The notes beneath the pieces are model-generated. The model had not been told where the DNA came from. It ran no database searches and saw only the letters and a program-made list of their open reading frames with translations. A DNA stretch of 64,000 nt from an uncultured Smithella sp. (GTDB lineage Bacteria; Desulfobacterota; Syntrophia; Syntrophales; Smithellaceae), in contig CAZYIE010000011.1 of assembly GCA_964646755.1 (NCBI GenBank), positions 4,681 to 68,680 on the forward strand. The letters are read 5' to 3'. Below are positions 19,917 to 43,802 of this stretch, one piece after another (the stretch's first letter is position 1; each line of letters begins with the position of its first letter). The position numbers and the translations under genes are program-made.

Positions 19917-20071
19917 CTTACCCTGACCTATATTTACCTTAACAGAAAGTGTCAAATTAAGTCTTGTCTCCATTATCGCATGTACTACTCTTGAGTGCCG
20001 CATTTTCTGGAAAACAATTATTGCCGAAAGAACAGGGAGACATTTTGTAACCGGCATCCCTCAGGATATTG

Positions 20072-20443
20072 CTATTTCTTGCACTCTCCAATGGAACCTT
20101 CTTTACACCTTGACCCGTCCGTCCAAGTTGCCGTACTCAGGTCTGCCCCACCCAGTTTTGCCTCTTTCAGGTTTGCCATGTACAGGTCTGCACCACACAG
20201 TTTTGCCCCACTTATGTCTGCCTTGCTCAGATTTGCCTTGAACAGTCTTGCCCCGGCCAGGTTTGCCTTGCTCAGATTTGCCCCGCTCAGGTTCGCATTG
20301 TCCAGATTGCATTTCGGGCATGAATTTGTTGTTCTTAACTTCTTCAAATCTGCTTCGCTATACGCATATACCCCTCTTACCGATAGCATACCTATCATAA
20401 GAATCGCTATGACTGAAAGAAACACTCTGCTCCCTGTCTGCAT
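20072..20443 (-). CDS. secreted pentapeptide-repeat protein
   Basis: 123 aa. There is a signal peptide (..LSVRGVYA/YS), then A(N/D)LxX repeats: NANLSGANLSKANLAGARLFKANLSKADISGAKLCGADLYMANLKEAKLGGADL. A Cys-containing tail follows. Confidence 0.85.
   Translation of the reverse strand: MQTGSRVFLSVIAILMIGMLSVRGVYAYSEADLKKLRTTNSCPKCNLDNANLSGANLSKANLAGARLFKANLSKADISGAKLCGADLYMANLKEAKLGGADLSTATWTDGSRCKEGSIGECKK
20219..20282 (-). repeat. in-frame coding duplication inside the pentapeptide-repeat gene
   Basis: The 19-mer TGCCTTGCTCAGATTTGCC occurs at 20219-20237 and 20264-20282. The offset is 45 nt, which equals three 15-nt pentapeptide units. Confidence 0.8.
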
Positions 20444-20633
20444 AATCCTGCCTCCATTTTGTTGGGTGAAGTATAAGAAGCGCCGCGTTATATGTCAAGA
20501 AAATCTGGGCCACATCAGACAGTGCTTACCTTTCTTGAGGATGGGAAGTTATGTGGAATGACCATAGCGTGTCGACGAAGAAGCTGTCCAGGTTTCATTC
20601 TCTGGGTATTTAATTCAGATTCCTTTAATTTTC

Positions 20634-20743: not shown

Positions 20744-21799
20744 ATGGACATGAAGCGCGATTACTATGAAGATATCCAGCTGTTTGAAAGCAACGTTGTT
20801 TTATTCTGGTCCATTTCCTTTCTGATTTTTATTTTTACCTTACCGTTATACGTTCCAGATTATCACTTTTATTTGCTGAATCTTGTGCTTGTTCACGTCA
20901 TTCTGGCAGTAGGGCTGAATATACTCGTCGGTTATACCGGGCAAATCTCACTCGGCCATGCTGGTTTCTTTGCTATCGGCGCCTATGGGACGGCTTTGCT
21001 CATGCTGAAACTGCAATTGCCGTTTTTTGTGGCGTTGCCACTGGCCGGATTCATTGCCGCCTTTTTCGGTTTTATTCTCGGCTTGCCAGCCCTCCGCCTG
21101 GAGGGCCCCTATTTGTCGATTGCGACGCTCGGATTCGGGTTGACCATCATGCAGATTATCGGCCACTGGGATTTCTTTGGCGGGCGCACCGGCATTCAGG
21201 TTCCACCCCTCGATATCGGTTTTGGTTTTATCCTGAAGACCGATATCAGCAAGTATTACCTGATCCTGATTATTACTGTACTGTTGGTGATTGCCGCCCG
21301 AAATCTCATGAAAACCCGTGTCGGCCGCGCCTTTGTGGCTATTCGGGACAGCGATATCGCCGCGGAAGTAATCGGTGTGAACCTGACCGCCTACAAGACT
21401 CTTTCCTTTGCTGTCAGCGCTTTCTATGCCGGTATTGCCGGGGGCCTCTTCGGCTTTGTTCTCGGCTATTTTAACCCTGAGCCGTTCAACCTCATTCTGT
21501 CCATTATCTTTCTAGTTATGATCGTTGTCGGAGGGCTGGGTTCCATCTTGGGGGCCATCCTCGGCGCCAGTCTGATCACGATCCTTCAGTTCAGCCTGCT
21601 GAAGAACATCAAGGAAATGCCATATGTCGGCGACTTCCTGGTGGCTGTCTCGAACCGGTGGTTTACCGTTGTGGGATTAGAAAATTTCGGCAGCATTGTT
21701 CTCGGCCTTATTATGATTGGCATTGTCATCTTCGAACCTCTGGGGATGTATGGCGTCTGGCTGCGGATTAAAAAATACTGGCGGACGTGGCCGTTTTAA
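20744..21799 (+). CDS. Liv-type ABC permease (LivM-like), cassette A
   Basis: 351 aa. Contains GYTGQISLGHAGFFAIGAY. The C-terminus is ...RIKKYWRTWPF. Confidence 0.9.
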   Translation: MDMKRDYYEDIQLFESNVVLFWSISFLIFIFTLPLYVPDYHFYLLNLVLVHVILAVGLNILVGYTGQISLGHAGFFAIGAYGTALLMLKLQLPFFVALPLAGFIAAFFGFILGLPALRLEGPYLSIATLGFGLTIMQIIGHWDFFGGRTGIQVPPLDIGFGFILKTDISKYYLILIITVLLVIAARNLMKTRVGRAFVAIRDSDIAAEVIGVNLTAYKTLSFAVSAFYAGIAGGLFGFVLGYFNPEPFNLILSIIFLVMIVVGGLGSILGAILGASLITILQFSLLKNIKEMPYVGDFLVAVSNRWFTVVGLENFGSIVLGLIMIGIVIFEPLGMYGVWLRIKKYWRTWPF

Positions 21800-21825
21800 T
21801 TGTTTTCTTAATCTAGGGAGGTTGC

Positions 21826-22698
21826 ATGTTTGGTCAACTGATCATGGAAGGACTCGCCATTGGTATCTGCTACGCTCTGTTCGGCATTGCTGTTGTCATC
21901 ATTTATAAAACATCCGAGGTTGTCAATTTCGCCCAGGGAGAGATGGCCATGCTCTCAACGTTTGTGGCATTTCAAATCCTGACCATTTATCAATGGCCTT
22001 TCTGGATGGCCTTCATCGGGACGATGATTTTTGCCGTCCTGCTGGGCATTTTCATCGAGTTCTTCTTTCTTCGGCCGGCTAAGGATCCCAGCCTTCTGGG
22101 ACTGATCGTCATTACCCTCGGTGCGGAGATGCTTCTCATGGGTGTTGCCGGATGGAAGTGGGGGGCTGAGCAGAAAGAATTTTCCCTTCCTTTCTCTTTT
22201 TCCAGCACGCATGAGCTGTTTCAAGGTGTTATTATTAATGACTGGACGATTGCTGTTTTTATGACGGCGGCCTTTCTAATGATTTTTCTGTTCTTGTTTT
22301 TCAGGTACACAAAATTGGGTGTGGCCATGCGGGCCACTCAGCAGAACCAACATGCTGCCAGAATTATGGGCATCCGAGTAGAACGGGTTTTTTCCTTTGC
22401 GTGGGGCTTCAGCTCAATGATCGGCGCTATTGCCGCGATGTTCTTTGCCGCTCGTTCGACGGTTGATCCTGCGTTCATGATGGAACCATTTCTCCGGGCT
22501 TTTGCGGCGGCCGTTCTCGGCGGTTTGATGAGTATTCCCGGTGTCGTCATCGGTGGCGCAATTCTGGGGTTGTTGGAAAACATGTTTGGCTATTTCTGGC
22601 CGGAGTGGAAGCCCATTGTTGCCTTTTTGGTGATTATTGTTGTCCTGTGCATCCGCCCCAGCGGGCTGTTTGCCAAACATTACATAAAGAAAGTGTAG
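21826..22698 (+). CDS. Liv-type ABC permease (LivH-like), cassette A
   Basis: 290 aa. The motif VVNFAQGEMAM is typical of LivH. GGGAGG RBS is present. Confidence 0.9.
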   Translation: MFGQLIMEGLAIGICYALFGIAVVIIYKTSEVVNFAQGEMAMLSTFVAFQILTIYQWPFWMAFIGTMIFAVLLGIFIEFFFLRPAKDPSLLGLIVITLGAEMLLMGVAGWKWGAEQKEFSLPFSFSSTHELFQGVIINDWTIAVFMTAAFLMIFLFLFFRYTKLGVAMRATQQNQHAARIMGIRVERVFSFAWGFSSMIGAIAAMFFAARSTVDPAFMMEPFLRAFAAAVLGGLMSIPGVVIGGAILGLLENMFGYFWPEWKPIVAFLVIIVVLCIRPSGLFAKHYIKKV

Positions 22699-22700
22699 TC

Positions 22701-23195
22701 ATGCTATCGTTGATGATGGGGAAATCGAAAATCCTTTTTCAATTTATCCGGGGCGGTATTGCAGTAGCAATCGTTTTTTGCTGTTTCGCCTTTTGTGCTG
22801 AAGGTCTTTGTGCGGAGCCTCCCGTTAAAACAGCCTCTTTACAGGAAGAGCAGGCCATTTATGAAGCAGCTAAAAAGTATCTCGATGCCGAAATCAGAAG
22901 AGATCTCCCCGCCGTTTACGCCTGCCTGGCGCCGTCTTCAGTTTATTGTGCCACCCATGACTATGAGGCCTTTCTTGCCGAGGCCAATGCCTCCTCGGTC
23001 AGAATCGTGGGATATAAAATACTCCGTATCGCTAACATTCGAGATAATGAAGACCTCAAAAGTTTTCCCAAGGTAGAGAAGTTTGCCCATGTCGAAGTTG
23101 ATGTCATCGTTTTTTATAAGGACACTAATGTGAAGGGTGACATCAATTTCGGGTTTACGTTCATCAAGGAAATGGGCAAGTGGTATAAAGGCTGA
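22701..23195 (+). CDS. small exported protein of unknown function inside cassette A
   Basis: 164 aa from ATG 22701, 3 nt after the permease stop. The track ORF at 22605 overlaps the permease. There is an N-terminal hydrophobic signal or anchor (GIAVAIVFCCFAFCAEGLCA). I recognise no family motif. Confidence 0.55.
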   Translation: MLSLMMGKSKILFQFIRGGIAVAIVFCCFAFCAEGLCAEPPVKTASLQEEQAIYEAAKKYLDAEIRRDLPAVYACLAPSSVYCATHDYEAFLAEANASSVRIVGYKILRIANIRDNEDLKSFPKVEKFAHVEVDVIVFYKDTNVKGDINFGFTFIKEMGKWYKG

Positions 23196-23232
23196 TGTCC
23201 GTTAAAAAATTAAGGAAGAGAAGGGGGAGATC

Positions 23233-24426
23233 ATGAAGAAGCAAAGATTAAGCGTTTTATCTTTTATTATCGTCATGTCGTTTTTCGTTTTAACTGCGTC
23301 AGTTTACGCAGCACCCGGTTTTGATGACAAAGAGATCCGGATTGCCGCCTGGGGGCCGCAGACTGGTCCGGCGGCGCCTTGGGGGAGTGTTGCCCGGGGG
23401 CCATCCGTACTGGCGGCCCTGATCAATGATGAAGGCGGGATTAACGGTCGCAAGCTGAAGCACTTTGTCCGGGACGACATGTACAACCCGGCGCAAACAA
23501 AGGTTGTCGTGAAGGAACTCGTTGAAAAGCAGGGCATCTTTGCCTTTGTGTGCGGAACCGGTTCCGCCGGCGGTCTGGCTGTAAAGGATTATCTGGCAGA
23601 GCACAAGGTGATCTGGGTAGGTCCGGCAACGTCCATCAAAGAATATGTCTTTCCAGTCAATCCCTATCTTTTCAGTATTTATCCGCTATATGAGGATGAA
23701 GGGAGTATCCTGGCCAAGTATGCAGTGGAAAAGCTCAATATAAAAGAAATCGGTGTGATCTATCAGAATGATCCTTACGGCAAAAATGGTCTGGACGGTG
23801 TCAGGCAGCGGCTGGATAAACTCGGGATGAAGGCAGTGGCAGAGATACCAATTGAATCAACGGAGAAGGATCTGTCTTCCCATATTCTGAAGTTGAAAAA
23901 TTCAGGAGCCAAGGCTGTTTTAATGTGGGTCAATCCGACCTCCGGCGTCATTCTCCTGAAAACGGCTGCGACCATAGGTTACAAGCCACAATGGATTGCT
24001 TCCAATACTTTGTCGGACTTCGCCCTGATGCATAAAATTTCCGGCGGATTATGGGAAGGGGTGATCACGGGTTCGTTCATGCTTCCGCCCGATTCCACTG
24101 ATCCTCGGATTGTGAGATATCGGAATGCCATCCAGAAATATGCGCCGGAAGAACGGCCGGGGCTTTTCTTCATGGCCGGTATGATGTTCACGGAACCTCT
24201 CATCGACGCCTTGAAGAGGGCAGGGAAGAAACTGAGCACGGAAGCGGCCCTCAAAGCATTGAATTCGACAAAAAACTTCCAGGGAACCGGCCCGCGGGTG
24301 AACTGGACTGCAGCGCAGCATCAAGGTACCGATTCCATTCAGATATGGAAGTGCGGACCGGGTGGCAGCACGGCACTGATTCAGGATTGGACGGTCAATG
24401 AGTTGGCTACCTGGAAAAAGAAGTAA
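23233..24426 (+). CDS. periplasmic substrate-binding protein (type I PBP, LivK-like), cassette A
   Basis: 397 aa. A signal peptide ends ..ASVYA. The motif INDEGGINGRKL is typical of the Peripla_BP_6 family. Confidence 0.9.
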   Translation: MKKQRLSVLSFIIVMSFFVLTASVYAAPGFDDKEIRIAAWGPQTGPAAPWGSVARGPSVLAALINDEGGINGRKLKHFVRDDMYNPAQTKVVVKELVEKQGIFAFVCGTGSAGGLAVKDYLAEHKVIWVGPATSIKEYVFPVNPYLFSIYPLYEDEGSILAKYAVEKLNIKEIGVIYQNDPYGKNGLDGVRQRLDKLGMKAVAEIPIESTEKDLSSHILKLKNSGAKAVLMWVNPTSGVILLKTAATIGYKPQWIASNTLSDFALMHKISGGLWEGVITGSFMLPPDSTDPRIVRYRNAIQKYAPEERPGLFFMAGMMFTEPLIDALKRAGKKLSTEAALKALNSTKNFQGTGPRVNWTAAQHQGTDSIQIWKCGPGGSTALIQDWTVNELATWKKK

Positions 24427-24469
24427 TCAGTATTTTGGATTTATTAAATTTTAACAGATGACTTTGTTT

Positions 24470-24528
24470 CCCCGCCTCAACTGGGCTTTCCCCTTCCAGG
24501 GGGAGAGCCCGAAGGTGGACGGGGTTTT
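24470..24528 (+). terminator. intercistronic terminator-like stem-loop between the SBP and ATPase genes
   Basis: Long imperfect hairpin. The outer stem is CCCCG../..CGGGG and the inner stem is GGGCUUUCCCC/GGGGAGAGCCC. It is followed by UUUUGU. Confidence 0.6.
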
Positions 24529-24571
24529 GTAACGGAATAAAATTATTCCTAAAGAAGGAACTTTTGTAAAC

Positions 24572-25357
24572 ATGGATCACTTCAGGGTTGAAAATCTGAG
24601 CATCAGTTTTGGTGGTTTAAAGGCCGTCAACAACGTGAGTTTCAATGTTGAACCCAACAGCATTTTTTCCATTATCGGTCCCAACGGTTCGGGAAAGACG
24701 ACTATATTTAATCTGATATCCGGTATCTACCATCCCAACAGCGGTCGAATTATCCTGGATGGGGAAGATATGGTGGGTAGGACACCGGATCGTATCGCTC
24801 GCAAGGGTATTGCCCGAACCTTCCAGAATATTGAACTGTTTGCCAAGGCAACGGTGATGGATAATATCATGTTGGGCCGGCACATCCACATGAAAACAGG
24901 TATATTTACCGGCGCCACTATGTTGGGGAGAAGGTCCCGGGCGGCGCGTGAAGAGATAAAAAACCGGGAGATTGTGGAGGGGATCATCGACTTTCTGGAT
25001 TTGCAGTCGTCTCGCGATCAGTATGTGGCGAGTCTGTCTTATGGTAAGCGGAAATTGGTCGAATTGGGTCGGGCTTTGGCCCTGCAACCAAAGATTTTGC
25101 TTCTGGATGAACCGTCGGCGGGAATGAATACGGAAGAAAAGGAAGATCTCAATATTTGGATCAAGGATATTCGTGAGGATTATAAGGTCACTATTTTACT
25201 CATCGAGCATGACATGAATATGATCATGGGTATCTCCGACCGTATATTTGCCATCAATCACGGCGAGAAGATCACCGAAGGTCTTCCCCGCGATGTCCAG
25301 ACCCATCCGGAGGTCATCAAGGCCTACCTTGGGGAGGAGGATATATTTCATGCTTAA
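24572..25357 (+). CDS. ABC ATPase (LivG-like), cassette A
   Basis: 261 aa. Walker A is GPNGSGKTT, the signature is LSYGKRK and Walker B is LLLDEP. Confidence 0.93.
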   Translation: MDHFRVENLSISFGGLKAVNNVSFNVEPNSIFSIIGPNGSGKTTIFNLISGIYHPNSGRIILDGEDMVGRTPDRIARKGIARTFQNIELFAKATVMDNIMLGRHIHMKTGIFTGATMLGRRSRAAREEIKNREIVEGIIDFLDLQSSRDQYVASLSYGKRKLVELGRALALQPKILLLDEPSAGMNTEEKEDLNIWIKDIREDYKVTILLIEHDMNMIMGISDRIFAINHGEKITEGLPRDVQTHPEVIKAYLGEEDIFHA

Positions 25358-26132
25358 AGTTAGTAATGTGGAAACCTGGTATGATCTTATCCGAGCTCTT
25401 CACGGTATCTCCTTTCAGGTGACTCAGGGCAATATCGTTGCCCTTCTCGGCTCCAATGGGGCTGGTAAATCGACTACCTTAAAGACGATTCTCCGGCTCC
25501 TATATGAGTTGAAGGAAGAACAGCCGGAAAAGGGAACCATCGAGTTTCTTGGGCAGCGCATCGATAGGAAGGATACGGACGAAATCGTTAGAATGGGCAT
25601 CAGCTATGTCCCGGAAGGCCGGGAGGTTTTCCCCGAGCTGACTGTAATGGAGAACATTCAGATGGGCGCCTATACGAGAAAAGACAGGAAAGGCATTAAG
25701 TCTGATATCGATCGCATCCTGAAGCGTTTTCCGATTCTGAATGAACGACGAAATCAGCAGGCGGGTTATCTCAGCGGCGGGGAGCAGCAGATGCTGGCTA
25801 TCGGTCGGGCGCTCATGAGCCGGCCTAAGCTCCTGATGCTCGATGAACCATCACTGGGTCTGTCGCCTTTGCTAACCAACGATATTTTCCACATCATTAA
25901 GGAAATAAACGAGAAGGACGGTGTGACAATCCTGTTGGTTGAACAGAATGTCAATATGGCGCTCAGGTATTCCCATTTTGCCTACCTGATGGAAAATGGC
26001 AGAATCGTTCGTGCAGACAAACCGGAAGTTCTGCGTGAAGACGATGACGTGAAGGAGTTCTACCTGGGAATCGCGAAAGAGGTGTCGGTGAAGGGATTCA
26101 AGCGCTACCGCAGAAAGGTAAGATTTCGATGA
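25350..26132 (+). CDS. ABC ATPase (LivF-like) with a basic/aromatic C-terminal tail, cassette A
   Basis: ATG 25350 gives an ATGCTTAA overlap with the livG-like stop. Walker A is GSNGAGKST, the signature is LSGGEQQ and Walker B is LMLDEP. A tail follows EFYLG: IAKEVSVKGFKRYRRKVRFR. Confidence 0.92.
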   Translation: MLKVSNVETWYDLIRALHGISFQVTQGNIVALLGSNGAGKSTTLKTILRLLYELKEEQPEKGTIEFLGQRIDRKDTDEIVRMGISYVPEGREVFPELTVMENIQMGAYTRKDRKGIKSDIDRILKRFPILNERRNQQAGYLSGGEQQMLAIGRALMSRPKLLMLDEPSLGLSPLLTNDIFHIIKEINEKDGVTILLVEQNVNMALRYSHFAYLMENGRIVRADKPEVLREDDDVKEFYLGIAKEVSVKGFKRYRRKVRFR

Positions 26133-27964
26133 CCCAGTTAACTAATCAGTTCCCCAATTCAATAGTAGATACGCTACCGAAGGCTCTGGTCCATCTCGCC
26201 CAAAAACAGCCTGAGCGGATTGCCTTGAGGCGCAAGGATTTCGGCATCTGGCAAGATATTTACTGGTCGGGATACCTGGAGAATGTCAAACAGGTAGCGT
26301 TGGGGCTTCATGCCCTGGGCGTCAAGCGGGGAGACCATGTCTCCATAATCGGGGAAAATAAACCAGAGTGGCTCTATAGCGCCCTGGGTGTCATGTCCAT
26401 AGGAGCGACCTTCGTTGGGGTTTACACGACGAATCCTCCTGCCGAATGTGAATATGTTGTAGGCCATTCCGAATCTGCGGTTTACATCTGCGAAGATGAA
26501 GAACAGTTCGACAAGGCTCTTGTTTTTCGGTCCCGGACGCCGCATTTACGTAAGCTGATTGTCTGGGATATGGAAGGGCTGCGGCACTTTGAAGACCCCA
26601 TGATGATGAGTTTTGACGACCTCCTGGCTCTGGGAAAAAAGACCGGTGATGAGCATCCTCAACTATTTGATGAGCTTGTGGCAGGGGGCAAGGGAGAAGA
26701 TATCGGCGGTATCATTTATACATCAGGAACGACTGGTCCACCGAAGGGAGCCATGCTGTCTCATGAAGGTTATCTTTGGGTTGGCAAACAGGCCAGTTTT
26801 ATCACCCGAACCGTTATTGATGACGAGACGATTTCGTTTCTGCCGCTGAATCATGTTTATGAACAGATTTTTGATATGATGGTGCACTTGACGGTAGGTC
26901 ACATTGTGAATTTTACAGAAAATACCGATACTGTTACCATGGACATGCAGGAAGTTTCTCCAACGCTGTTTCATGCAGTGCCGAGGATATGGGAGAAATA
27001 CTATTCCAGCATCATTTTAAAGATGGCCGATGCAACATGGCTCAAAAGAAAGAGTTATGATGTGGCCCTCAATATCGGGTCTCAATACAACGCCGTAAAA
27101 CTCAGCGGTAAAACGCCGTCACCGGCACTGAAACTGGCCTATTGGGCGGCCTACTTTGTAGTTTTTCGAAAGTTGAAGAAGCGCCTGGGGTTTGACCGGG
27201 TGCGTCTGGGGTTTTCCGGCGCCGCGCCTATCTCGCATAATATCTTGAAGTATTTTCAAAGTATCGGCATCCCCATCCGGGAAGGTTACGGAATGACCGA
27301 GACAACAGGGATTACCCATATGTCCGATGAGTTCAACTTCAAACTGGGAACTGTCGGCAAAGCCCTGCCGGAGACGGAAGTGCGGATTGCCGAAGATGGA
27401 GAAATTCTGGTTAAACATAAAGGGATCATTAAAGGCTACTTCAGGGATGAGGAGAACACCCGGGAGGCTGTTCATGACGGCTGGATGCATACGGGTGATG
27501 TGGGTGAGATCGACGAAGAAGGCTACCTGAAAATCACGGATAGGAAGAAGGATCTGATCATTACGGCTGGGGGTAAGAATATTGCTCCGCAATACATTGA
27601 GAATATGTTGAAGTTCTCCCCTTATATTAATGATGCTGTCATCATCGGCGACAAACGAAAATTCATTGCTGCGCTCATTGTTATTGACGAGGAGAACGTC
27701 GTTAAATATGCTCAGGACAACAAGGTCCAGTACACAACATTTGCCAGTCTAACCAAGTCGGAAGAAGTCGTGAATCTGATCTCGGCGGAGATCAACAAGG
27801 TCAACGATCAGGTGGCGCGTGTGGAAAACATCCGGAAGTTCAGAATCCTCGACAAAAAGCTTTACACCGAAGACGGGGAAGTTACTCCAACCATGAAGGT
27901 CAAGCGCAAGTCCATCAATGAACAGTATAAAGATCTCATAGAAGAAATGTACAGAAGCGATTGA
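26129..27964 (+). CDS. AMP-forming long-chain-type acyl-CoA synthetase (COG1022-like, 611 aa), cassette A
   Basis: Motifs YTSGTTGPPKGAMLSH, GYGMTET, TGDVGEIDEEGYLKITDRKKDLIITAGGKNIAP and PTMKVKRK. Its ATG overlaps the LivF-like stop (ATGA). Confidence 0.92.
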   Translation: MTQLTNQFPNSIVDTLPKALVHLAQKQPERIALRRKDFGIWQDIYWSGYLENVKQVALGLHALGVKRGDHVSIIGENKPEWLYSALGVMSIGATFVGVYTTNPPAECEYVVGHSESAVYICEDEEQFDKALVFRSRTPHLRKLIVWDMEGLRHFEDPMMMSFDDLLALGKKTGDEHPQLFDELVAGGKGEDIGGIIYTSGTTGPPKGAMLSHEGYLWVGKQASFITRTVIDDETISFLPLNHVYEQIFDMMVHLTVGHIVNFTENTDTVTMDMQEVSPTLFHAVPRIWEKYYSSIILKMADATWLKRKSYDVALNIGSQYNAVKLSGKTPSPALKLAYWAAYFVVFRKLKKRLGFDRVRLGFSGAAPISHNILKYFQSIGIPIREGYGMTETTGITHMSDEFNFKLGTVGKALPETEVRIAEDGEILVKHKGIIKGYFRDEENTREAVHDGWMHTGDVGEIDEEGYLKITDRKKDLIITAGGKNIAPQYIENMLKFSPYINDAVIIGDKRKFIAALIVIDEENVVKYAQDNKVQYTTFASLTKSEEVVNLISAEINKVNDQVARVENIRKFRILDKKLYTEDGEVTPTMKVKRKSINEQYKDLIEEMYRSD

Positions 27965-28145: not shown

Positions 28146-29762
28146 ATGAAAACAGAAAATAAAACTGCGCCGCTGCTGGTTGGTGCCGCACAGTATACCC
28201 AGCCCAAAGATGTTGTTTGCGCCCTGGATCCGCTGGGGCTTATGATCAAAGCCAGCCGTGCAGCATTTGCTGATGCAGGTGCTGGTGGTCTGGCGGCGCT
28301 TGTTGATACGGTATGTGTGGTCAATAGTTTTTCCCGGGATGATGAAAACACTGCTGCCGCATTGGCGGCAGCAGTAGGCATTCGGCCACGGGAGGCCATC
28401 TACTCGGCAATCGGTGGTAATACTCCCCAAAAACTGGTCAACAGGTTTGCCCGTGATATTGCGGCAGGCAGAAGAAGGGGGGTATTAATTTCCGGCGCGG
28501 AAGCCGTTTATGCCATGTACAGAGCATCCCGCGGAACAACAAAACTTGACTGGCCTGATAACATAACCCTTCAGCAGCTCAATACCCATAATCTTCCTAC
28601 TAATTTTGACGCCATGCTCCATCTGGGTTGTGACCACGAAAAGGAAATACTGGAAGCCCGGGGCGATAAGTATGACGAACCCAACAACACGATAGAAAAA
28701 GCCTACGATCTTTTTCTGCCTCAGTATATGTATCCTTTTTTTGAAACCGCTCTGCGGCGTTTCGCCGGGAGAACGCCTGAGGAACACCGCCTCTACATGG
28801 GCAGGCGCTATGAACGCCTTTCCCAGATTGCTTCCGAGAACCCCTATGCCTGGAACCGCAAGTTCCTATCGGCAGATGAGATTACGCTGCCGACAGCACA
28901 CAACCGCTTTGTGGTCTATCCCTACACCCTCCGCATGATGTCCAACATCAATGTTGATCAAGCGGCGGCTCTGATTATGACCAGTGAGAGCGATGCCCGG
29001 GCACTGGGCATTGAATCTTCACGATGGGTTTATCCGATGGGTGGGGCGGAATTGAATAATATCCGGCACGTCACACAAAGGCCGCGGCTTTACGATTCGC
29101 CGGCCATTACGGAAGCATCCCGCTTGGCCCTGCAGCAAGCCGGTTTGTCTCTCGGCGATATTGGAATATTTGACCTTTATAGTTGCTTTCCCTCTGCTGT
29201 GGACATTTCCCGTCAGGCCATCGGAATTGACGAAAATGATTCTCGCGATTTATCGGTAACAGGAGGACTTGCCTATTTTGGTGGTCCCGGGAATAATTAT
29301 TCCCTGCACGCCATCGCTACCGTCATGAGCCATATCCGCCGGGATCGTCGCTTAAAAGCTATGGTAACGGCCAATGGCTGGTACAACTCCAAACATGCCA
29401 TTGGCATCTATGGTGCGGAATCTCCGGCGAACCCCTGGGAGGATGAAGATTATTCGGCAATCCAGAAAGCAATCGATGCCGAAGCTTTACCCGAGCCGGT
29501 TGAACGAGCAGAAGGTCCTTTGACGGTTGAGGCATATTCGATTCGGTATGATGCCGCCGGGCATCCGGAGCGTGTCACCGTTATTGGTAGCCTGCAGAGC
29601 GGTCGCCGGGCACTGGCAGATATTCAAGCCGAGACACACGAACTCAGAAAACTCGAGCAGGTCAAGCTGGTAGGAAAGACAGGTGCAGCAAGATTTAACT
29701 TTGCAGCAGGCAGGAATTCCGTGGTTTTTGATCCTGCCCTGTATCAGTCCATGACGCCATAA
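28146..29762 (+). CDS. thiolase-fold protein fused to a C-terminal OB/DUF35-like domain (538 aa)
   Basis: The first ~420 aa have thiolase-like layout and motifs (..VTGGLAYFGGPGNNYSLHAIA..). The C-terminal ~110 aa (EGPLTVEAYSIRYDAAGHPERVTVIGSLQSGRRALADI..) resembles the OB half of the DUF35 protein at 50165-50584. Confidence 0.6.
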   Translation: MKTENKTAPLLVGAAQYTQPKDVVCALDPLGLMIKASRAAFADAGAGGLAALVDTVCVVNSFSRDDENTAAALAAAVGIRPREAIYSAIGGNTPQKLVNRFARDIAAGRRRGVLISGAEAVYAMYRASRGTTKLDWPDNITLQQLNTHNLPTNFDAMLHLGCDHEKEILEARGDKYDEPNNTIEKAYDLFLPQYMYPFFETALRRFAGRTPEEHRLYMGRRYERLSQIASENPYAWNRKFLSADEITLPTAHNRFVVYPYTLRMMSNINVDQAAALIMTSESDARALGIESSRWVYPMGGAELNNIRHVTQRPRLYDSPAITEASRLALQQAGLSLGDIGIFDLYSCFPSAVDISRQAIGIDENDSRDLSVTGGLAYFGGPGNNYSLHAIATVMSHIRRDRRLKAMVTANGWYNSKHAIGIYGAESPANPWEDEDYSAIQKAIDAEALPEPVERAEGPLTVEAYSIRYDAAGHPERVTVIGSLQSGRRALADIQAETHELRKLEQVKLVGKTGAARFNFAAGRNSVVFDPALYQSMTP

Positions 29763-36695: not shown

Positions 36696-37490
36696 ATGCT
36701 GAAAGTTACAAATCTCGAAACGACCTACAATGATATCATCCTGTCGCTCAAGGGAATTTCCCTTGAAGTTCCACCTGCTAAAATTGTTGCTCTGCTTGGA
36801 GCCAACGGTTCCGGCAAAACTACCACACTCAATACAATTTCCGGGATCCGCAAGACGATTGATCTGGCCGTTGAAGATGGTGTAATCGAATTCGAAGGTC
36901 AGGTTATCAATGAAAAAGAGCCTTACAGTATAGTTTCTCTGGGGATCTCCCAGGTTCCCGAGGGAAGGCGGATTTTTGCTGAGCTGACCGTTGAGGAAAA
37001 TATCATAATCGGTTCCTATGTTCTGGCCGATCGTAAAAAATTCCCCCTTAGTCTGGAGACGGTCTTTGGTTACTTCCCCATTCTGAGAGAACGCCGCCGT
37101 CAGCTTGCCGGTTACCTAAGTGGCGGAGAGCAGCAGATGCTGGCTATTGCCCGGGCCCTGATCGCCGATCCCAAGTTGATCATGCTGGACGAACCGTCCC
37201 TCGGGATTGCTCCTCTTGTCGTAAAAGAAATATTTGAAATCGTCAGCACTATTAATAGAGAAAGAGGTGTGGCCATTTTGCTGGTGGAACAAAACGCCAA
37301 TGTTGCCTTATCGATTGCTCATTATGGTTACATCCTGGAGAACGGCAGAATCGTGATGGAAGGACCGAGCGAAGTATTGCGAGAAAACAGGGATATCAAG
37401 GAATTTTACCTTGGTCTGACGGATGTGGGTACCAAGAAAAGTTTCCGGGACGTTAAACATTACAAGAGAAGGAAAAGATGGCTGTCATGA
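36696..37490 (+). CDS. ABC ATPase (LivF-like) with a basic/aromatic C-terminal tail, cassette B
   Basis: 264 aa. Walker A is GANGSGKTT, the signature is LSGGEQQ and Walker B is IMLDEP. A tail follows EFYLG: LTDVGTKKSFRDVKHYKRRKRWLS. Confidence 0.92.
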   Translation: MLKVTNLETTYNDIILSLKGISLEVPPAKIVALLGANGSGKTTTLNTISGIRKTIDLAVEDGVIEFEGQVINEKEPYSIVSLGISQVPEGRRIFAELTVEENIIIGSYVLADRKKFPLSLETVFGYFPILRERRRQLAGYLSGGEQQMLAIARALIADPKLIMLDEPSLGIAPLVVKEIFEIVSTINRERGVAILLVEQNANVALSIAHYGYILENGRIVMEGPSEVLRENRDIKEFYLGLTDVGTKKSFRDVKHYKRRKRWLS

Positions 37491-38266
37491 ATTCGGATAA
37501 ATCAATGCAACTGGAGATAGCGGATCTTTCCATGAGCTTCGGTGGAATTAAGGCCATTCGGAATGTTTCCATCGGCGTGAAATCAGGGGAAATCTATTCG
37601 ATTATCGGGCCGAACGGGGCCGGCAAGACAACCATTTTCAATTGTATCAGCGGTATCTACAAGGCCCAGCAGGGCAGCATCCGGTTTGAAAATCGGGAGT
37701 TGCTTGGGGTCAAGCCGGACCGGATTGCGCAAATGGGTGTGGCCAGAGCTTTTCAGAACATTGCCCTTTTCAAGGGAATGACCGTTCTGGATAATCTGAT
37801 GTCCGCACGGGTCCATCTCATGAAATATGGACTTTTAGGGGCGGCCCTGTACCTTGGCAAATGCCAGCGGGAGGAGGTTGAAAACCGCGATGCCGTGGAA
37901 GATGTAATTGAGTTTCTTGATTTGCAGTCTGTGCGGAAGTCTCCCGTAAGCAGTTTGTCTTATGGCCTCCAGAAACGGGTGGAGCTGGCGCGCGCCCTGG
38001 CCATGAAACCGAAGATTCTGCTGGTTGACGAACCTGTCAGCGGAATGAATCTCGAAGAGCGCGAAGACATGGCGAGGTACATAATTGATATCAATGAAGA
38101 GATGGATATAACAGTTGTGCTGATCGAACATGACATGGGGCTGGTCATGGACCTGTCCGATCGAGTTACAGTCCTTAATTTCGGCACCAAAATCGCTGAA
38201 GGCACACCCGGAGAAGTGAGTGCGAATCCGGAGGTGGTCAAGGCTTACCTGGGAGATGAACAATGA
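37478..38266 (+). CDS. ABC ATPase (LivG-like), cassette B
   Basis: 262 aa. Walker A is GPNGAGKTT, the signature is LSYGLQK and Walker B is LLVDEP. It overlaps the preceding gene by 13 nt. Confidence 0.93.
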   Translation: MAVMNSDKSMQLEIADLSMSFGGIKAIRNVSIGVKSGEIYSIIGPNGAGKTTIFNCISGIYKAQQGSIRFENRELLGVKPDRIAQMGVARAFQNIALFKGMTVLDNLMSARVHLMKYGLLGAALYLGKCQREEVENRDAVEDVIEFLDLQSVRKSPVSSLSYGLQKRVELARALAMKPKILLVDEPVSGMNLEEREDMARYIIDINEEMDITVVLIEHDMGLVMDLSDRVTVLNFGTKIAEGTPGEVSANPEVVKAYLGDEQ

Positions 38267-38315
38267 GGGTCATGCGATCTTTAGCGACGATCAGCGTGTG
38301 GGGGGAGCAACATTC

Positions 38316-40127
38316 ATGGAGAGGGTAAATACGACATTACCGAAGCTGCTGCTGGAGAAAGCGGGGCTTTATCAAGACCGGGTTGCCATGCGCGAAAAAT
38401 TCAAAGGCATCTGGCAGGAAATCTCTTGGAATATGTACTTGGAAAAGGTCAGTGAATTCTGTTTGGGGCTTACGGACCTGGGCATGAAAAAAGGAGACCA
38501 GGCCTCGATTTTGGGAGAGAACTGCCCGGAATGGCTCTTTGCCGACTTGGGAATTCAGAGTCTGGGTGGTGTGGCAGTTGGTATTTATCCCACAAATTCG
38601 GCGGAGCAGGTCAAATATATTCTCGATCACTCCGAATCAAAGTTTGTTGTTGTTAAGGACCAGGAACAGGCAGACAAGGTACTGGCAGTAAAGGAAGAAT
38701 TGCCGCTGCTCAAAAAGATCATCGTCATCGACGTAAAAGGATTGCGTCACTACAATGAACCCCTGATCATTAGTTATAAGGATGTAGAAGCTTTAGGCAT
38801 AGAAGCCCTCCGGAAAGACCCGGCGGCTTTTACCCGTCTTGTTGAGCAGGGCCGGGCGGAGGATGTGGCTTTTATCGTCTATACGTCCGGAACAACGGGA
38901 CATCCCAAAGGCGCCATGCTTTCCCATCGGAATGTAATTCACCAGGCTGTCTATGCTCTGCAGCCGGTATTACACTTTACGGATCGGGATACTCTGCTCT
39001 CCTATTTGCCGCTGTGCCATATACTCGAGAGAAGCCTGACTATGAGCATGCCGCTGGTTTTCGGTTATACTGTAAGCTTTGCCGAATCGATCGATACGGT
39101 TCAGCAGAACATTCAGGAGATTCGCCCTTCTTTCTTTGCCGCCGTTCCGCGCATTTTGGAAAAACTTCACTCCGGCGTGCTAATCAAGATGGAAGACACG
39201 ACGCGTTTCAAGAAATTCATGTATAACTTCTGGCAGCCCGTAGGCTTGCGGGTATCGAGTTACCGAATGAACAACGAGAAGGTTCCGCTGCAATGGCTTT
39301 TGCTGTATGCGGTAGGTTATCTCTGGAGCTTTCGGTCCGTCCGCGACAAGGTCGGGATGCTCAATTGCCGGACTCTTATGAGCGGCGGCGCGCCTATTGC
39401 CCCGGAGGTCCTGACATTTTTCCGCTCGCTGGGTGTGCGAACCGTGGAAATGTATGGAGCTACGGAAACGTCCGGAACGATTTCCGGCCCCCATAAGAAA
39501 ATAAAACATGGATCTGTGGGTGAGCCTTGTCAAGGTTTGGAATTTCGACTGGCCGAGGATGGAGAAATTCATGTTAAGGGAGATTCCATCTTTGTCGGTT
39601 ATTATCGGGATGCCGAGGCCACATGTGAAGTTGTCCGTGACGGTTGGTATTGTACAGGGGATGTGGGCCAACTCGATGAAGACAATCACCTTTATATCGT
39701 TGATCGTAAGAAGGATATCATTATCACTTCCGGAGGAAAGAATATCTCTCCTTCGGAAATTGAAAACAAGCTTAAGTGCAGCATGTACATAAAAGAGGCT
39801 ATTGCCATTGGTGACCGCCGAAAGTATATCAGTGCGCTGATTCAGATCGATTACGAAAACGTGGGGAACTGGGCGCAGAAGAACAAAATTGCTTATACGA
39901 CCTATCGTAGTCTGGCGGAAAATCCCAAAGTCAAGGAACTGATTAAGCAGGAGATTGACGCGGCGAATGAAGGTCTGGCCAATGTGGAAAGTGTCAAGAA
40001 GTTCAAGATTCTGGAAAAGGAGCTAGACCAGGATGATGAGGAATTGACCGCCACGCAGAAAGTAAAGCGCAAGACCATTGAGAAGCGGTTTCAACAGGAG
40101 ATAGCGGAAATGTACGGCGGGCGCTGA
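38316..40127 (+). CDS. AMP-forming long-chain-type acyl-CoA synthetase (COG1022-like), cassette B
   Basis: Motifs YTSGTTGHPKGAMLSH, TGDVGQLDEDNHLYIVDRKKDIIITSGGKNISP and TQKVKRK. ATG 38316 after GGGGGGAG aligns best with the paralog N-termini. An upstream ATG at 38256 would overlap the livG-like stop. Confidence 0.9.
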   Translation: MERVNTTLPKLLLEKAGLYQDRVAMREKFKGIWQEISWNMYLEKVSEFCLGLTDLGMKKGDQASILGENCPEWLFADLGIQSLGGVAVGIYPTNSAEQVKYILDHSESKFVVVKDQEQADKVLAVKEELPLLKKIIVIDVKGLRHYNEPLIISYKDVEALGIEALRKDPAAFTRLVEQGRAEDVAFIVYTSGTTGHPKGAMLSHRNVIHQAVYALQPVLHFTDRDTLLSYLPLCHILERSLTMSMPLVFGYTVSFAESIDTVQQNIQEIRPSFFAAVPRILEKLHSGVLIKMEDTTRFKKFMYNFWQPVGLRVSSYRMNNEKVPLQWLLLYAVGYLWSFRSVRDKVGMLNCRTLMSGGAPIAPEVLTFFRSLGVRTVEMYGATETSGTISGPHKKIKHGSVGEPCQGLEFRLAEDGEIHVKGDSIFVGYYRDAEATCEVVRDGWYCTGDVGQLDEDNHLYIVDRKKDIIITSGGKNISPSEIENKLKCSMYIKEAIAIGDRRKYISALIQIDYENVGNWAQKNKIAYTTYRSLAENPKVKELIKQEIDAANEGLANVESVKKFKILEKELDQDDEELTATQKVKRKTIEKRFQQEIAEMYGGR

Positions 40128-40168
40128 GAGTCCCGCCGGGAGGAAAATTCAGAGAGGGTGTTGATATA

Positions 40169-41068
40169 ATGGAAAAAATTATCGAGATTCTGTTTAATGG
40201 TTTGTCCATGGGAGCGATTTACGCCCTGATGGCCCTGGGTTTTGTTCTCATCTTTAAATCGACAGGTGTGATTAACTTTGCCCAGGGCGAGTTAGCCATG
40301 GTGGGTGCTTTTATCTGTTACAGCTTTGCCACTATGATGAATGTTCCTTATATTTATGCCTTCTTTATAGCCTTGATCGGCGGCATCATTCTGGGTGCGG
40401 CAGTTTACCAGATCTTCTTTAGGACCATGGTGGGTGAACCACTGTTTTCCACGATCATGGTCACCGTAGGACTTGCCAGTATCCTGACGTGTCTCGCGGG
40501 GCTCATCTGGGGTCACGATGTCTATTCGCTTAGTTCCCCTTTTACAGACAAGGTCATTCACCTGGATAAAATTACCTTGGCCCAGGGTTCGATCTCCACT
40601 ATTATTGTATCTATCGTACTGTTTGTCGTCGTCATCCTGTTTTTTAGCCGCTCTCTGCTGGGAATCTCTATGCGGGGTTCGGCGGAAGACCCGGATACGG
40701 CGGGGCTCATGGGAATCAACGTGAAGAAAATTCACATGGTGGCCTGGGCATTGGGAGGGCTGGTGGCAGCTGTGGCCGGTATGTTCCTTGCGGAGCAGAG
40801 CTTTGTCCGTCTGGCGATGAGCCATGTGGGGCTTAAGGCCATGGCGGCGGCAATTCTCGGTGGAATGGAAAGCATCGGCGGTGCTATCGTGGGCGGCATA
40901 ATTATTGGTGTTGTCGAAGGGTTGGCGGCGAATTATCTAAGTGGCATGTCGCTGGGAAATTTCCACATGGGTGATATCAAGGACGTGGCCGCCTTTGCGA
41001 TTATGATCATCGTTCTGATGATCCGGCCGCACGGTATTTTCGGCAAGGAAAAAGTGGAAAGGGTGTAA
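40169..41068 (+). CDS. Liv-type ABC permease (LivH-like), cassette B
   Basis: 299 aa with the motif VINFAQGELAM. Confidence 0.9.
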   Translation: MEKIIEILFNGLSMGAIYALMALGFVLIFKSTGVINFAQGELAMVGAFICYSFATMMNVPYIYAFFIALIGGIILGAAVYQIFFRTMVGEPLFSTIMVTVGLASILTCLAGLIWGHDVYSLSSPFTDKVIHLDKITLAQGSISTIIVSIVLFVVVILFFSRSLLGISMRGSAEDPDTAGLMGINVKKIHMVAWALGGLVAAVAGMFLAEQSFVRLAMSHVGLKAMAAAILGGMESIGGAIVGGIIIGVVEGLAANYLSGMSLGNFHMGDIKDVAAFAIMIIVLMIRPHGIFGKEKVERV

Positions 41069-41076
41069 AAACGTTT

Positions 41077-42111
41077 ATGGCGAATTTTAAAGTCAGTTAC
41101 CGGGAAGATACAGCGCTTTTCCAGAACCTCTGGGTCAAGTCCTGGTTGGTAATATTTATCGTGGCGATGCTGGTGCTCCCTTTTCTGCTGTCTCGTTATC
41201 AGTTGAGCATTCTCGATGAGATGGGGATTGCCGTGATTGGCGCTTTGGGCCTCAATCTCCTGATAGGCTATACGGGGCAGATTTCGCTGGGGCACGGCGC
41301 CTTTGTCGCCATCGGTGCATATACATCTGGTTTGCTCGCCGGAACGCTGGGAGTGCCTTTCATAATTTCGCTGCCTCTTTCCGGCCTTATGGCCGCCTTG
41401 CTTAGCCTGATCGTGGGCGTTCCCTCTCTGCGGTTGAAAGGCCTTTATCTGGCCCTCGGGACATTGGCCTTTGGTTTTATCATCGAGTACATCCTGTTTC
41501 ACTGGGACCTTACCAGAGGAGATACGGGCATGGCCGTTCCGAAGATCGGAACGGAAGGCTTTTATATCGAAACGGAACGGCAGTTCTTTTTCCTGATCAT
41601 GTTTTTTGCGGTCATCGCGACACTTGTGGCGAAGAATCTTGCCCGGACGAAAATTGGACGCTCATTTGTAGCCATCCGCGATCGCGACATCGCGGCGGAG
41701 GCCATGGGGATTTCACTGGCTAAATATAAAATAATGGCGTTTGCTGTTGCCGCTTTTTATGCCGGTGTGGCGGGAAGTCTGATGGCTTACTACCAGAAAT
41801 GGATCGTGCCCGGAAACTTTGATATTACCTTGTCTATCGCCTATATTGCCATGATCGTTCTCGGGGGCATGGGTACTGTTCTGGGCTCCATTCTTGGAGC
41901 CATTTTGATCACCGGCATTCCCCACGCCATCGTTTACCTGACCGACGCACTTCGCGGTACTTATCCCAATCTCAGCAACTTGATCGTGGATTTGAAACTC
42001 GGCATCTTCGGTCTGGTCATTGTTTTAACACTCCTGTTCGAACCTCAGGGGCTTGTTGGCATCTATCGGCGTATCAAAATTTACTGGAAGACCTGGCCCT
42101 TTAAGTATTAA
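41077..42111 (+). CDS. Liv-type ABC permease (LivM-like), cassette B
   Basis: 344 aa with GYTGQISLGHGAFVAIGAY. The C-terminus is ...RIKIYWKTWPFKY. Confidence 0.9.
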   Translation: MANFKVSYREDTALFQNLWVKSWLVIFIVAMLVLPFLLSRYQLSILDEMGIAVIGALGLNLLIGYTGQISLGHGAFVAIGAYTSGLLAGTLGVPFIISLPLSGLMAALLSLIVGVPSLRLKGLYLALGTLAFGFIIEYILFHWDLTRGDTGMAVPKIGTEGFYIETERQFFFLIMFFAVIATLVAKNLARTKIGRSFVAIRDRDIAAEAMGISLAKYKIMAFAVAAFYAGVAGSLMAYYQKWIVPGNFDITLSIAYIAMIVLGGMGTVLGSILGAILITGIPHAIVYLTDALRGTYPNLSNLIVDLKLGIFGLVIVLTLLFEPQGLVGIYRRIKIYWKTWPFKY

Positions 42112-42370
42112 GTTTGTTGCAATGCTGGTACAACATTGATTTTAGAAGAGAATGCTTTATTTCAACCAGCGATAAATGATATAAATTACATTGATTATAA
42201 TGATAGGAATAGGTTGTTTTTATGAGGTGTTGAACTACACCATTGTATGGTCAAAATAATGTAGGATCGCCGGGAAAAAGGCGGCAAGAGGAGTATGTGA
42301 GACTTAACATTTAGCTGATGGAAAAGCCGGTCTGCCGGATCTGTCAATCCATGAAAGGAGCAAATTACCA

Positions 42371-43696
42371 ATGAAGAAGATTATGAGGGGAGTAGTATTA
42401 GCGGTGTTAACGATTCCCGTGTTCTGTGTTATTGTCTTTGCTCAGGCCCAGTCCCCGAAATTTCCCGACGCGGCGGCGTCAGATCCTGTAGTGCTCGGAT
42501 GGATGCAGGGTTTTCCACCCAAGGCTGACAAGATCATTCGCTTCGGTGATGTTAGCTTCTACCGTTTTCCCCAATCACGCTGGTCATTTAGCAACATGAG
42601 GCAGCTCGTTCCGACGGTTGCAGTTTCACGTGGTGATGGTCCGGTTACCCCACTGCCTCGCGCCGAGAGGACGGATCTGGATGCTGTGAAGTTTACGACC
42701 CTCGATGGCCGGGAAATGACGTGGGGTGAGTCGATCGCAGCGAACTACACCGACGGCATCGTTGTGCTGCACAAAGGCAGGATCGTATATGAGAAATTCT
42801 TAGGCGCTTTCAGCCCGATTAAGCTGCATTGGGCGGCGTCGGTAACGAAGTCCTTTGTGGGCACCCTCGCCGCCATTCTTGTTGACGAGGGCAAGCTTGA
42901 TCCTGAGGCTCTCTGCTCGAAATATGTGCCGGAACTCAAGGATACCGCTTACGCCGACGCGACGCTCCGGCAGGTTATGGATATGACGGTCAGTGTGAAG
43001 TTTTCGGAAGTCTATGCCGACCCGAAGGCCGACATTTGGGTTTTTGCAAGGGCCACCGGAATGTTTCCGCTGCCGCCGAACTATGATGGTCCGCGCAATA
43101 CCTATGACATGCTCCTCGCACTCACCAAGCAGAAAAATGGCGAACATGGGGAGAGGTTTACCTATAAGAGCGTCGATCCCGAAGTTTTGGCCTGGATTAT
43201 TAGCCGTGTCTCGGGGAAATCTCTTGCTGAACTCACCTCAGAAAAGATATGGACAAAACTCGGCGCTGAGCACGATGCCTGCTACTGGGTAGACAGCATT
43301 GGTGTGAATTTGGCAGGCGGGGGCCTGAACACGTCACTGCGTGATCTCGCCCGATTCGGGGAGATGCTGCGTCTGGACGGCTACTACAACGGACAGCAGA
43401 TTGTCCCCCGCTCTGTTGTGGCTGATATACGCCGTGGCGCCGACAAGGGAAACTTTGCCAAAGCCGGTTATAAAACTCTGCCCGGATGGTCTTACCGGAA
43501 CTTCTGGTGGGTGTCGCACAATGAACATGGCGTCTACACTGCGCGCGGAGTTCACGGGCAGCTCATCTGGATCGATCCAAAGGCAGAAATGGTGATTGCC
43601 CGGTATGCATCTTATCCCATAGCATCGAACCCTCTCATCGATCCCACGTCATTGCCGGCTTATATGGCCATAGCAAAGCACCTGATGAAGGACTAG
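42371..43696 (+). CDS. exported serine hydrolase of the beta-lactamase/transpeptidase-like (class C / esterase) family
   Basis: 441 aa. A signal peptide ends ..VFAQAQS. The SxxK motif is ASVTKSF. GAAAGGAG RBS is present. It lies between the permease and SBP genes of cassette B. Confidence 0.8.
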   Translation: MKKIMRGVVLAVLTIPVFCVIVFAQAQSPKFPDAAASDPVVLGWMQGFPPKADKIIRFGDVSFYRFPQSRWSFSNMRQLVPTVAVSRGDGPVTPLPRAERTDLDAVKFTTLDGREMTWGESIAANYTDGIVVLHKGRIVYEKFLGAFSPIKLHWAASVTKSFVGTLAAILVDEGKLDPEALCSKYVPELKDTAYADATLRQVMDMTVSVKFSEVYADPKADIWVFARATGMFPLPPNYDGPRNTYDMLLALTKQKNGEHGERFTYKSVDPEVLAWIISRVSGKSLAELTSEKIWTKLGAEHDACYWVDSIGVNLAGGGLNTSLRDLARFGEMLRLDGYYNGQQIVPRSVVADIRRGADKGNFAKAGYKTLPGWSYRNFWWVSHNEHGVYTARGVHGQLIWIDPKAEMVIARYASYPIASNPLIDPTSLPAYMAIAKHLMKD

Positions 43697-43802
43697 TCCA
43701 GTGAAAGACGTAATAAGTAGCCTCGGAGGCCGGTCGTTTCCGCCGGCGTCGAAAAGTCCAAATAGATTAGTGTCAAAATCGATGTCAATGGTTGTTTGCA
43801 CC

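Follow-up and report, generated by a model that had tools for sequence, protein, structure and literature searches.

A 64,000-nucleotide stretch of contig CAZYIE010000011.1 from an uncultured Smithella sp. (the window) carries three operons for Liv/HAAT-type ATP-binding cassette (ABC) importers, similar to TC 3.A.1.4 and designated cassettes A, B, and C. Database proteins nearly identical to those of the window bear names that point to a Smithellaceae/Syntrophales-like genome. Each encodes the ATPases LivF and LivG (Pfam ABC_tran), the permeases LivH and LivM (BPD_transp_2), a Liv-type substrate-binding protein (SBP), and an embedded AMP-forming ligase of approximately 600 residues (Pfam AMP-binding and AMP-binding_C_3). 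The three LivF-like ATPases continue for 20–24 residues beyond the YLG motif at which the family usually ends, and the three LivM-like permeases share the terminus ...Y(W/Y)(R/K)xWPF. All three cassettes fall in a single Liv/HAAT-type subfamily, distinct, monophyletic, and of very broad phylogenetic range, with a FadD11-like ligase inside the operon, a LivF tail of 19–26 residues and, usually, an aromatic/basic LivM helix followed by [WY]P[FY]. The tails are confined to this ligase-embedded subfamily. Those in the window are listed here, with tail types as defined below.

26070–26132, plus strand: LivF_A C-terminal tail IAKEVSVKGFKRYRRKVRFR and stop; type II, KG[FY].RY.RK..[WF]; net charge +8.
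37416–37490, plus strand: LivF_B C-terminal tail LTDVGTKKSFRDVKHYKRRKRWLS and stop; type I, variable linker and then KS[FY]RDVKHYKRRKRWL; net charge +7.
60179–60241, plus strand: LivF_C C-terminal tail MEQEGASDKGYRFYTKRRRW and stop; type II; net charge +3.
21743–21799, plus strand: LivM_A C-terminal tail GMYGVWLRIKKYWRTWPF and stop, after the EPxG turn behind the last membrane helix; ends in RIKKYWRTWPF.
42052–42111, plus strand: LivM_B C-terminal tail LVGIYRRIKIYWKTWPFKY and stop; ends in ...RIKIYWKTWPFKY, with a predicted helix at residues 326–339 followed by a WPFKY coil.
63043–63099, plus strand: LivM_C C-terminal tail, most of GLAGRWFKMRLYYRNWPFR, and stop; ends in ...KMRLYYRNWPFR.

The sequences and coordinates of all six tails matched the original prediction exactly when the open reading frames (ORFs) were re-read. 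The window paralogs share 53%–56% pairwise identity for LivF and 43%–44% for LivM, and the core motif proposed for the LivF tails holds if a 3-residue indel is permitted in cassette B. The premise that a canonical LivF ends at YLG was also borne out. Query residue 240–242, at most two residues from YLG, is where both the NCBIfam LivF model (237 positions) and a solved LivF-like chain from Thermotoga (1JI0) stop, and 63/63 tail-less LivF homologs from other Liv systems extend no more than 12 residues past YLG, mostly 1–2.

20744–27964, plus strand: cassette A, with LivM (20744–21799), LivH (21826–22698), an ORF without a Pfam match (22701–23195), SBP (23233–24426), LivG (24572–25357), LivF (25350–26132), and a FadD11-like AMP-ligase (26129–27964); the LivF stop overlaps the ligase start in ATGA.
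36696–45086, plus strand: cassette B, with LivF (36696–37490), LivG (37478–38266), AMP-ligase (~38316–40127), LivH (40169–41068), LivM (41077–42111), a beta-lactamase-family hydrolase (42371–43696), and SBP (43701/43869–45086).
57490–64000, plus strand: cassette C, with SBP (57490–58698), LivG (58705–59466), LivF (59444/59471–60241), AMP-ligase (60242–62053), LivM (62119–63099), and LivH (from 63125, running past the window end).

The top NCBIfam matches of the window ATPases were LivF and LivG (E = 1e-65 to 1e-84), and 1JI0 was matched at E = 2e-73. All LivM proteins tested matched Pfam PF02653 (E = 1e-35 to 1e-43) with the LivM subfamily model as the top NCBIfam match, the cassette A binding protein matched the NCBIfam Liv binding-protein subfamily model, and LivH was assigned with profiles built from the window's own proteins. 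Orthology to E. coli LivFGHM failed the NCBIfam cut-offs: LivF scored 219–229 bits against 441, LivM 162–169 against 366, and LivG of cassette A, the sole LivG scored, 282 against 362. E. coli LivFGHMJ/K and the urea transporter UrtBCDE (HAAT) have the same five-component architecture of ABC_tran, BPD_transp_2, and Liv-type binding protein, but they have neither tails nor a ligase gene, and the substrates of the window systems are likely to be organic acids instead. For the embedded ligase, FadD11 (NCBIfam NF038343) was the top model, yet it scored 432 bits against a cut-off of 950; the ligase is a relative rather than an ortholog.

Contigs representing one genome per species were scanned with a profile of the three window LivF cores lacking their tails, which gave 80 loci with 10-kb flanks; ORFs at these loci were annotated with profiles from the window LivF, LivG, LivH, LivM, binding protein, and ligase. 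A ligase was present in the operon of 18/18 tailed LivF genes and 0/63 tail-less ones (Fisher p = 2e-18). The tailed proteins carried basic tails of 19–26 residues and came from Bacteroidota, Alphaproteobacteria, Chloroflexota, Rokubacteria, Bacillota, Actinomycetota, and Desulfobacterota. Their ligases form one family throughout, scoring 436–934 bits against the window-ligase profile in one tally and 115–934 bits in another, where the lowest values came from partial copies at contig ends. A metagenome scan was anchored on the type I tail itself and returned 80 tail-bearing loci, taken as informative where at least 7.5 kb of upstream sequence was available. All 18 informative contigs carried a ligase, which lay inside the search span in 17 cases and 9 kb upstream in L112, and every metagenome locus without one lay on a contig that ended too early. 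Among annotated plasmids, three tailed operons (Deinococcus, Polaromonas, and Sulfitobacter) had an "AMP-binding protein" gene between the ATPase and permease genes, and 4/4 tail-less Liv operons had no embedded ligase; in an even sampling, approximately 4/60 plasmid LivF matches were of the tailed kind. Tail and ligase were therefore paired in 39/39 informative loci (18/18 genome, 18/18 metagenome, and 3/3 plasmid), as they are in 3/3 window cassettes.

The proposal that the tails segregate with the ligase gene was upheld by these counts (18/18 versus 0/63 in genomes, 18/18 metagenome contigs, and 3/3 versus 0/4 plasmid loci), and in none of the three collections were tails common in Liv systems lacking the ligase. 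The description of the ligase as adjacent needs amendment: it belongs to the operon but is frequently not next to LivF, the most frequent order at tailed loci being LivG-ligase-LivH-LivM-SBP-LivF. An origin of the tail as a by-product of overlap with a downstream ligase start was rejected, since LivF is the last gene or precedes LivG in most operons. Five plasmid matches had been aligned by tblastn past residue 255 (H47, H48, H50, H58, and H74); H47, H48, H58, and H74 proved to be tail-less, with alignments that overran the stop. When a representative library was searched with the profile of the LivF core lacking its tail, LivG-LivF fusions (two domains, doubled score) made up most of the 150 best matches, and the search does not serve as an unbiased tail census; it supplied further tail variants (P0130, P0211–P0213, P0217, P0224, and P0260). 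The joined LivF-ligase proteins P0183, P0189, P0049, and P0171 seem to stem from frameshifts in gene calling and not from natural fusion.

At eight loci (L085, L089, L090, L106, L109, L136, L159, and L161), a second AMP-ligase gene lies directly 3' of the tailed LivF, additional to the ligase between LivG and LivH. Three AMP-binding genes are present at the plasmid locus of Deinococcus.

In a neighbor-joining tree of LivF cores without tails, all 21 tailed proteins (18 loci plus the three from the window) fell in a single clade with three branches, and by this topology the tail is a single ancient invention. Because the tailed LivF proteins form one clade, the co-occurrence statistics describe a subfamily signature, not repeated co-evolution. 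Throughout the subfamily, a variable Gly/Ser/acidic linker opens the LivF tail and leads into a polybasic motif with Trp or Phe at its end; three types were distinguished. Type I has an 8-residue variable linker followed by KS[FY]RDVKHYKRRKRWL (window B), and type II has the motif KG[FYW].R[YF].[KR][KR]..[WF] (window A and C). Type III, RGERRWK[KR]KK.WR, was found in Alphaproteobacteria (loci L002, L003, L027, and L042) with the gene order LivH-LivM-LivG-LivF-ligase-SBP. The LivM end [WY]P[FY] accompanies types I and II; type III LivM ends in FKRQK.YVKSERNR.

The subfamily spans at least eight phyla, with tail conservation level with that of the ATPase core. In a sample not chosen by tail, identity over the tail compared with the whole of LivF was 0.69 versus 0.62 for type I and 0.54 versus 0.56 for all types, which supports the original prediction that these non-canonical tails are under constraint. 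Conservation of the LivF tail is position specific (Ser, [FY], Asp, His-Tyr, and RRKRW) and therefore favors a defined binding interface over a charge cloud. For LivM, 120/120 best profile matches in a collection of 5.8 billion proteins ended in W-x2-[IV]-[RK]-x-Y-[FW]-[RK]-[VL]-[WY]-P-F-[SA]-Y; these 120 proteins are 43%–51% identical to LivM_B, and W(-11), P, and F are invariant.

The two tails differ in predicted physical character. AlphaFold2 (AF2) modeled LivM_B from a 122-sequence alignment with a mean predicted local distance difference test score (pLDDT) of 83.7 and a predicted template modeling score of 0.84. The last membrane helix (307–321) is followed by an EPQG turn, a tail helix (326–339), and the WPFKY coil, with pLDDT of approximately 70–74 in the tail. 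For the LivM consensus tail, the hydrophobic moment is 1.03, a value that 0/500 shuffles reached; the three window LivM tails gave 0.33–0.59, not significant against shuffles. LivF tails are very polar (net charge +3 to +8; mean hydrophobicity approximately -0.55) and not amphipathic, their maximal moment of 0.57–0.85 being attained by 12%–36% of shuffles, and AF2 placed residues 224–264 of LivF_B at pLDDT below 50. On these models, we infer for LivM an amphipathic tail helix at the membrane interface on the cytoplasmic side, and for LivF a tail that is a short, disordered linear motif. The suggestion of an amphipathic membrane anchor thus survives for LivM, from the modeled helix and the consensus moment, and fails for LivF, whose tail is polar, non-amphipathic, and predicted to be disordered. 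Consistent with this division, a membrane-targeting helix of the MinD/FtsA type was not recognized in the LivF tails, and the LivM result was mixed (consensus yes, window tails no). Nor does the LivF tail resemble a folded C-terminal regulatory domain such as MetN C2, ModC, or MalK (at least ~80 residues): it is 20–24 residues long, contains no Pfam domain, and is predicted to be disordered.

Both tails might instead attach to the head groups of anionic phospholipids in the cytoplasmic leaflet, anchoring the ATPase or shaping a lateral exit for hydrophobic acids independently of the ligase. The basic and aromatic composition of both tails would suit such a role, as would a LivM tail predicted to be helical directly after the last membrane helix with a strongly amphipathic consensus. 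We nevertheless consider it distinctly unlikely: the LivF tail is non-amphipathic, with a moment within the shuffle range, and its residue order is kept position by position, which goes beyond composition. By homology to LptB, its point of origin is also the dimer interface and not the membrane (PMC6703430). A further argument comes from the Paracoccus versutus plasmid pTAV3 (L165), where one of the four tail-less plasmid Liv operons lies inside a phenylacetate (paa) cluster with paaK separate and on the other strand. It is a natural control, being a Liv system for an aromatic acid with no ligase embedded. Because this operon is tail-less and its PaaK ligase is encoded apart, a carboxylate substrate does not by itself entail tails, and a hydrophobic acid can be handled without them.

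Two characterized ATPases bear on where the LivF tail may sit. In LptB, the closest characterized homolog of LivF and LivG, the YLG helix packs on the Walker A motif, the next residues reach the switch helix both within a subunit and across the dimer, and added C-terminal extensions disturb dimerization and ATPase turnover (PMC6703430). Since LivF and LivG have the same YLG helix, the LivF tail would emerge where the ATPase dimer is controlled. The post-YLG residues tune ATP turnover in LptB, but there they number approximately five and the system extracts lipopolysaccharide, whereas LivF has 20–24 residues with a conserved distal motif and serves an importer. In MlaF, an unstructured C-terminal extension of ~25 residues docks on the neighboring ATPase and the accessory protein MlaB and is needed for assembly (PMC7367683). 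The MlaF extension and the LivF tail are alike in placing an extended linker, with a short conserved motif at its far end, behind the ABC ATPase domain, and the length and low pLDDT of the LivF tail are compatible with an extension of this kind, although docking is known for MlaF alone. The terminal motifs have no sequence similarity, being hydrophobic in MlaF (Tyr261, Leu265, and Leu266) and polybasic with a final Trp in LivF. Mla also uses a homodimeric ATPase with a STAS partner, whereas here the ATPase is a LivF/LivG heterodimer in which LivF alone is tailed, and the candidate accessory partner is the 600-residue acyl-coenzyme A (acyl-CoA) ligase.

Hints of a partner were sought by comparing operons of the ligase type with the remaining Liv operons. 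In the former, the D-loop helix of LivG bears acidic residues specific to the subfamily (E193, E196, and D204 in LivG_B; motif GMN.EE.ED...[WY]I.DI.E), and LivF has KEFYLG where other LivF proteins have KAYLG. LivM of the subfamily (window 20744–21799, 41077–42111, and 62119–63099) carries an N-terminal Y..D..LF motif before the first membrane helix, and after the last one EPxG replaces the usual RPxG. The ligases of these operons are nearly always acidic.

The main rival to a role involving the ligase is that the LivF tail is purely internal to the LivF-LivG heterodimer, where it would stabilize or gate dimerization and ATP turnover without touching the ligase, the link to the ligase reflecting shared ancestry alone. 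The tail starts right after the YLG helix, which in LptB packs against Walker A; the residues behind it reach the switch helix of the dimer partner, and C-terminal extensions at this place change ATPase turnover (PMC6703430). The essential role of the MlaF extension is dimer stabilization (PMC7367683). The acidic LivG helix is subfamily specific and its charge covaries weakly with that of the tail, and the tailed LivF proteins are a single clade. We judge this explanation rather unlikely all the same: it leaves the co-occurring LivM tail unexplained, the charge covariation is weak, and the trait was never lost or uncoupled from the ligase in 39/39 informative loci across many phyla.

In R. palustris, the ligands of Liv-type binding proteins are fatty and dicarboxylic acids and not Leu, Ile, or Val (PMC3223731), and in Ralstonia, a Liv-type ABC operon and a neighboring CoA-ligase gene each have pimelate-linked fitness defects (PMC12543098). 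The R. palustris and Ralstonia/Cupriavidus (pimelate) systems lie beside CoA-ligase or beta-oxidation genes, as here, but the Ralstonia ligase gene follows the operon and does not lie between LivG and LivH; the papers on them (PMC3223731 and PMC12543098) do not mention tails. Neighboring genes in the window and on the plasmids are for beta-oxidation or acyclic-terpene utilization. On account of these three lines of evidence, we infer that the subfamily imports organic acids (fatty, dicarboxylic, or terpenoid), not branched-chain amino acids; ligase-embedded Liv operons probably encode importers of such acids together with an enzyme dedicated to activating them.

Coupling of fatty-acid transport to an acyl-CoA synthetase (vectorial acylation) is familiar from FadL-FadD, yeast Fat1p-Faa1p, and the mycobacterial mce1 operon with fadD5, and in some such systems the synthetase gene lies inside the transporter operon. 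The peroxisomal ABCD/Comatose transporter likewise works with acyl-CoA synthetases. None of these is known to use short basic tails on an ATPase or permease. These systems belong to other transporter families, and coupling in the ligase-embedded Liv subfamily is suggested by gene context alone.

On the model of the MlaF extension, we hypothesized that the LivF and LivM tails act as assembly or coupling motifs for a complex of transporter and ligase in which import is physically coupled to CoA activation, a reading to which we give about an even chance. The importer would bring in an organic acid, and the embedded ligase would then thioesterify it with CoA. The LivF tail, leaving the ATPase directly after the YLG helix and near Walker A and the switch helix as in LptB, could wrap onto a partner as the MlaF extension does; that partner would be LivG, through its acidic D-loop helix, or the ligase, which is acidic in general. 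The LivM tail could supply a membrane-proximal contact or an exit site, and the outcome would be vectorial acylation.

Several observations weigh against this hypothesis. The co-occurrence of tail and ligase represents one phylogenetic event, which alone does not prove direct contact between them. Across 40 operons, tail charge correlated weakly with the charge of the LivG D-loop helix (rho = -0.36, p = 0.02), a relationship that ignores phylogeny and derives mainly from one sister pair (window C and L063), and tail charge did not correlate with ligase net charge. Type III operons retain the polybasic-Trp tail of LivF without the WPF end of LivM, so the two tails are separable. The LivF alignment used by AF2 was shallow, which weakens the assignment of disorder, and sequence searches found no solved Liv-type permease structures. 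Fusions of ligase and LivH are rare and may be assembly errors.

In cassette C, the acidic D-loop helix of LivG is largely lost and the LivF tail is the least basic (+3); L063 shows the same pairing. A Foldseek comparison of the LivM model with the PDB returned weak matches to type II importer permeases alone (PsaC and BhuU), with no transferable geometry. One ligase-LivH fusion was found as an uninterrupted 909-residue ORF in a Candidatus Rokubacteria metagenome-assembled genome (L006:4784–7510, plus strand; ligase at amino acids 6–601 and LivH at 618–909), and the P0271 and P0272 clusters combine AMP-binding_C_3 with BPD_transp_2. As Rosetta-stone evidence, such fusions were given little weight because they are sporadic and LivH is a protein of its own, 299 residues long, in more than 100 close relatives.

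A stronger form of the coupling hypothesis, which we hold only tentatively and think improbable, takes the tails as the assembly code of a stoichiometric importer/ligase supercomplex with group-translocation-like import. The LivM helix and the LivF polybasic motif would clamp the ligase onto the cytoplasmic face, and the LivF tail at the ATPase dimer interface would let the docked ligase gate ATP turnover, which would proceed only with a substrate-ready ligase in place. The imported acid would be passed straight to the ligase and leave as acyl-CoA.

The product itself could also be what the tail recognizes. Many ABC importers are trans-inhibited via C-terminal elements below their ATPases (PMC7367683), and a LivF tail that bound acyl-CoA or CoA could throttle ATP hydrolysis without a folded domain. 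By the comparison with LptB, the tail is at an ATPase-controlling position, and its charge and aromatic residues would suit a nucleotide-thioester ligand with three phosphates, an adenine, and an acyl chain. We regard product sensing as very unlikely, since no known acyl-CoA-binding motif was recognized, no Pfam family covers the tail, and a disordered 16-residue peptide is an improbable site for a specific ligand.

The secure result is one of classification: the tails are a sequence signature of the ligase-embedded Liv subfamily. NCBIfam and Pfam hold no model for this subfamily or for the tails, and annotation of its genes by the Prokaryotic Genome Annotation Pipeline is generic. Full-text literature searches by topic and by motif strings (KRRKRW, WPFSY, and YKRRKRWL) found no description of the tails. 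Liv-family importers, a short ATPase extension, and ligase coupling by gene context are each known, and this variant appears to be undescribed. For re-annotation, the signature is a LivF with [KR]4-5-x-W no more than 3 residues from the C terminus together with a LivM ending in WPF. The tails are also small, precise targets for asking whether an ABC importer couples physically and kinetically to the first catabolic enzyme. If the coupling hypothesis is true, then vectorial acylation, proposed for other transporter classes, would extend to binding-protein-dependent ABC importers (no case was found in the searched literature), and the LivF tail would join MlaF as the second case in which a short, unfolded extension of an ATPase serves assembly. 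If the supercomplex exists, it would be a group-translocation-like ABC importer widespread in bacteria.

Between the cassettes lie beta-oxidation genes for acyl-CoA dehydrogenases, FadB-like multifunctional enzymes, and thiolases, and three further acid-catabolism proteins are encoded there.

46419–47864: HpaB-family protein, which we take to resemble 4-hydroxybutyryl-CoA dehydratase.
28146–29762: thiolase-like protein with TLP1_add_C.
54374–55984: fourth AMP-ligase of the window, of a different type (AMP-binding_C) and outside any cassette.

The beta-lactamase-family serine hydrolase of cassette B (PF00144; 42371–43696, plus strand), between LivM and the SBP, has a signal-peptide-like hydrophobic N terminus and may be a periplasmic esterase that frees the imported acid. 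The ORF between LivH and the SBP of cassette A (22701–23195, plus strand) encodes 164 residues, with a hydrophobic N terminus and no Pfam match. Upstream of cassette A, a pentapeptide-repeat protein (PF00805) is encoded on the minus strand (20072–20443), and its repeats give rise to a long plus-strand mirror ORF (19995–20561).

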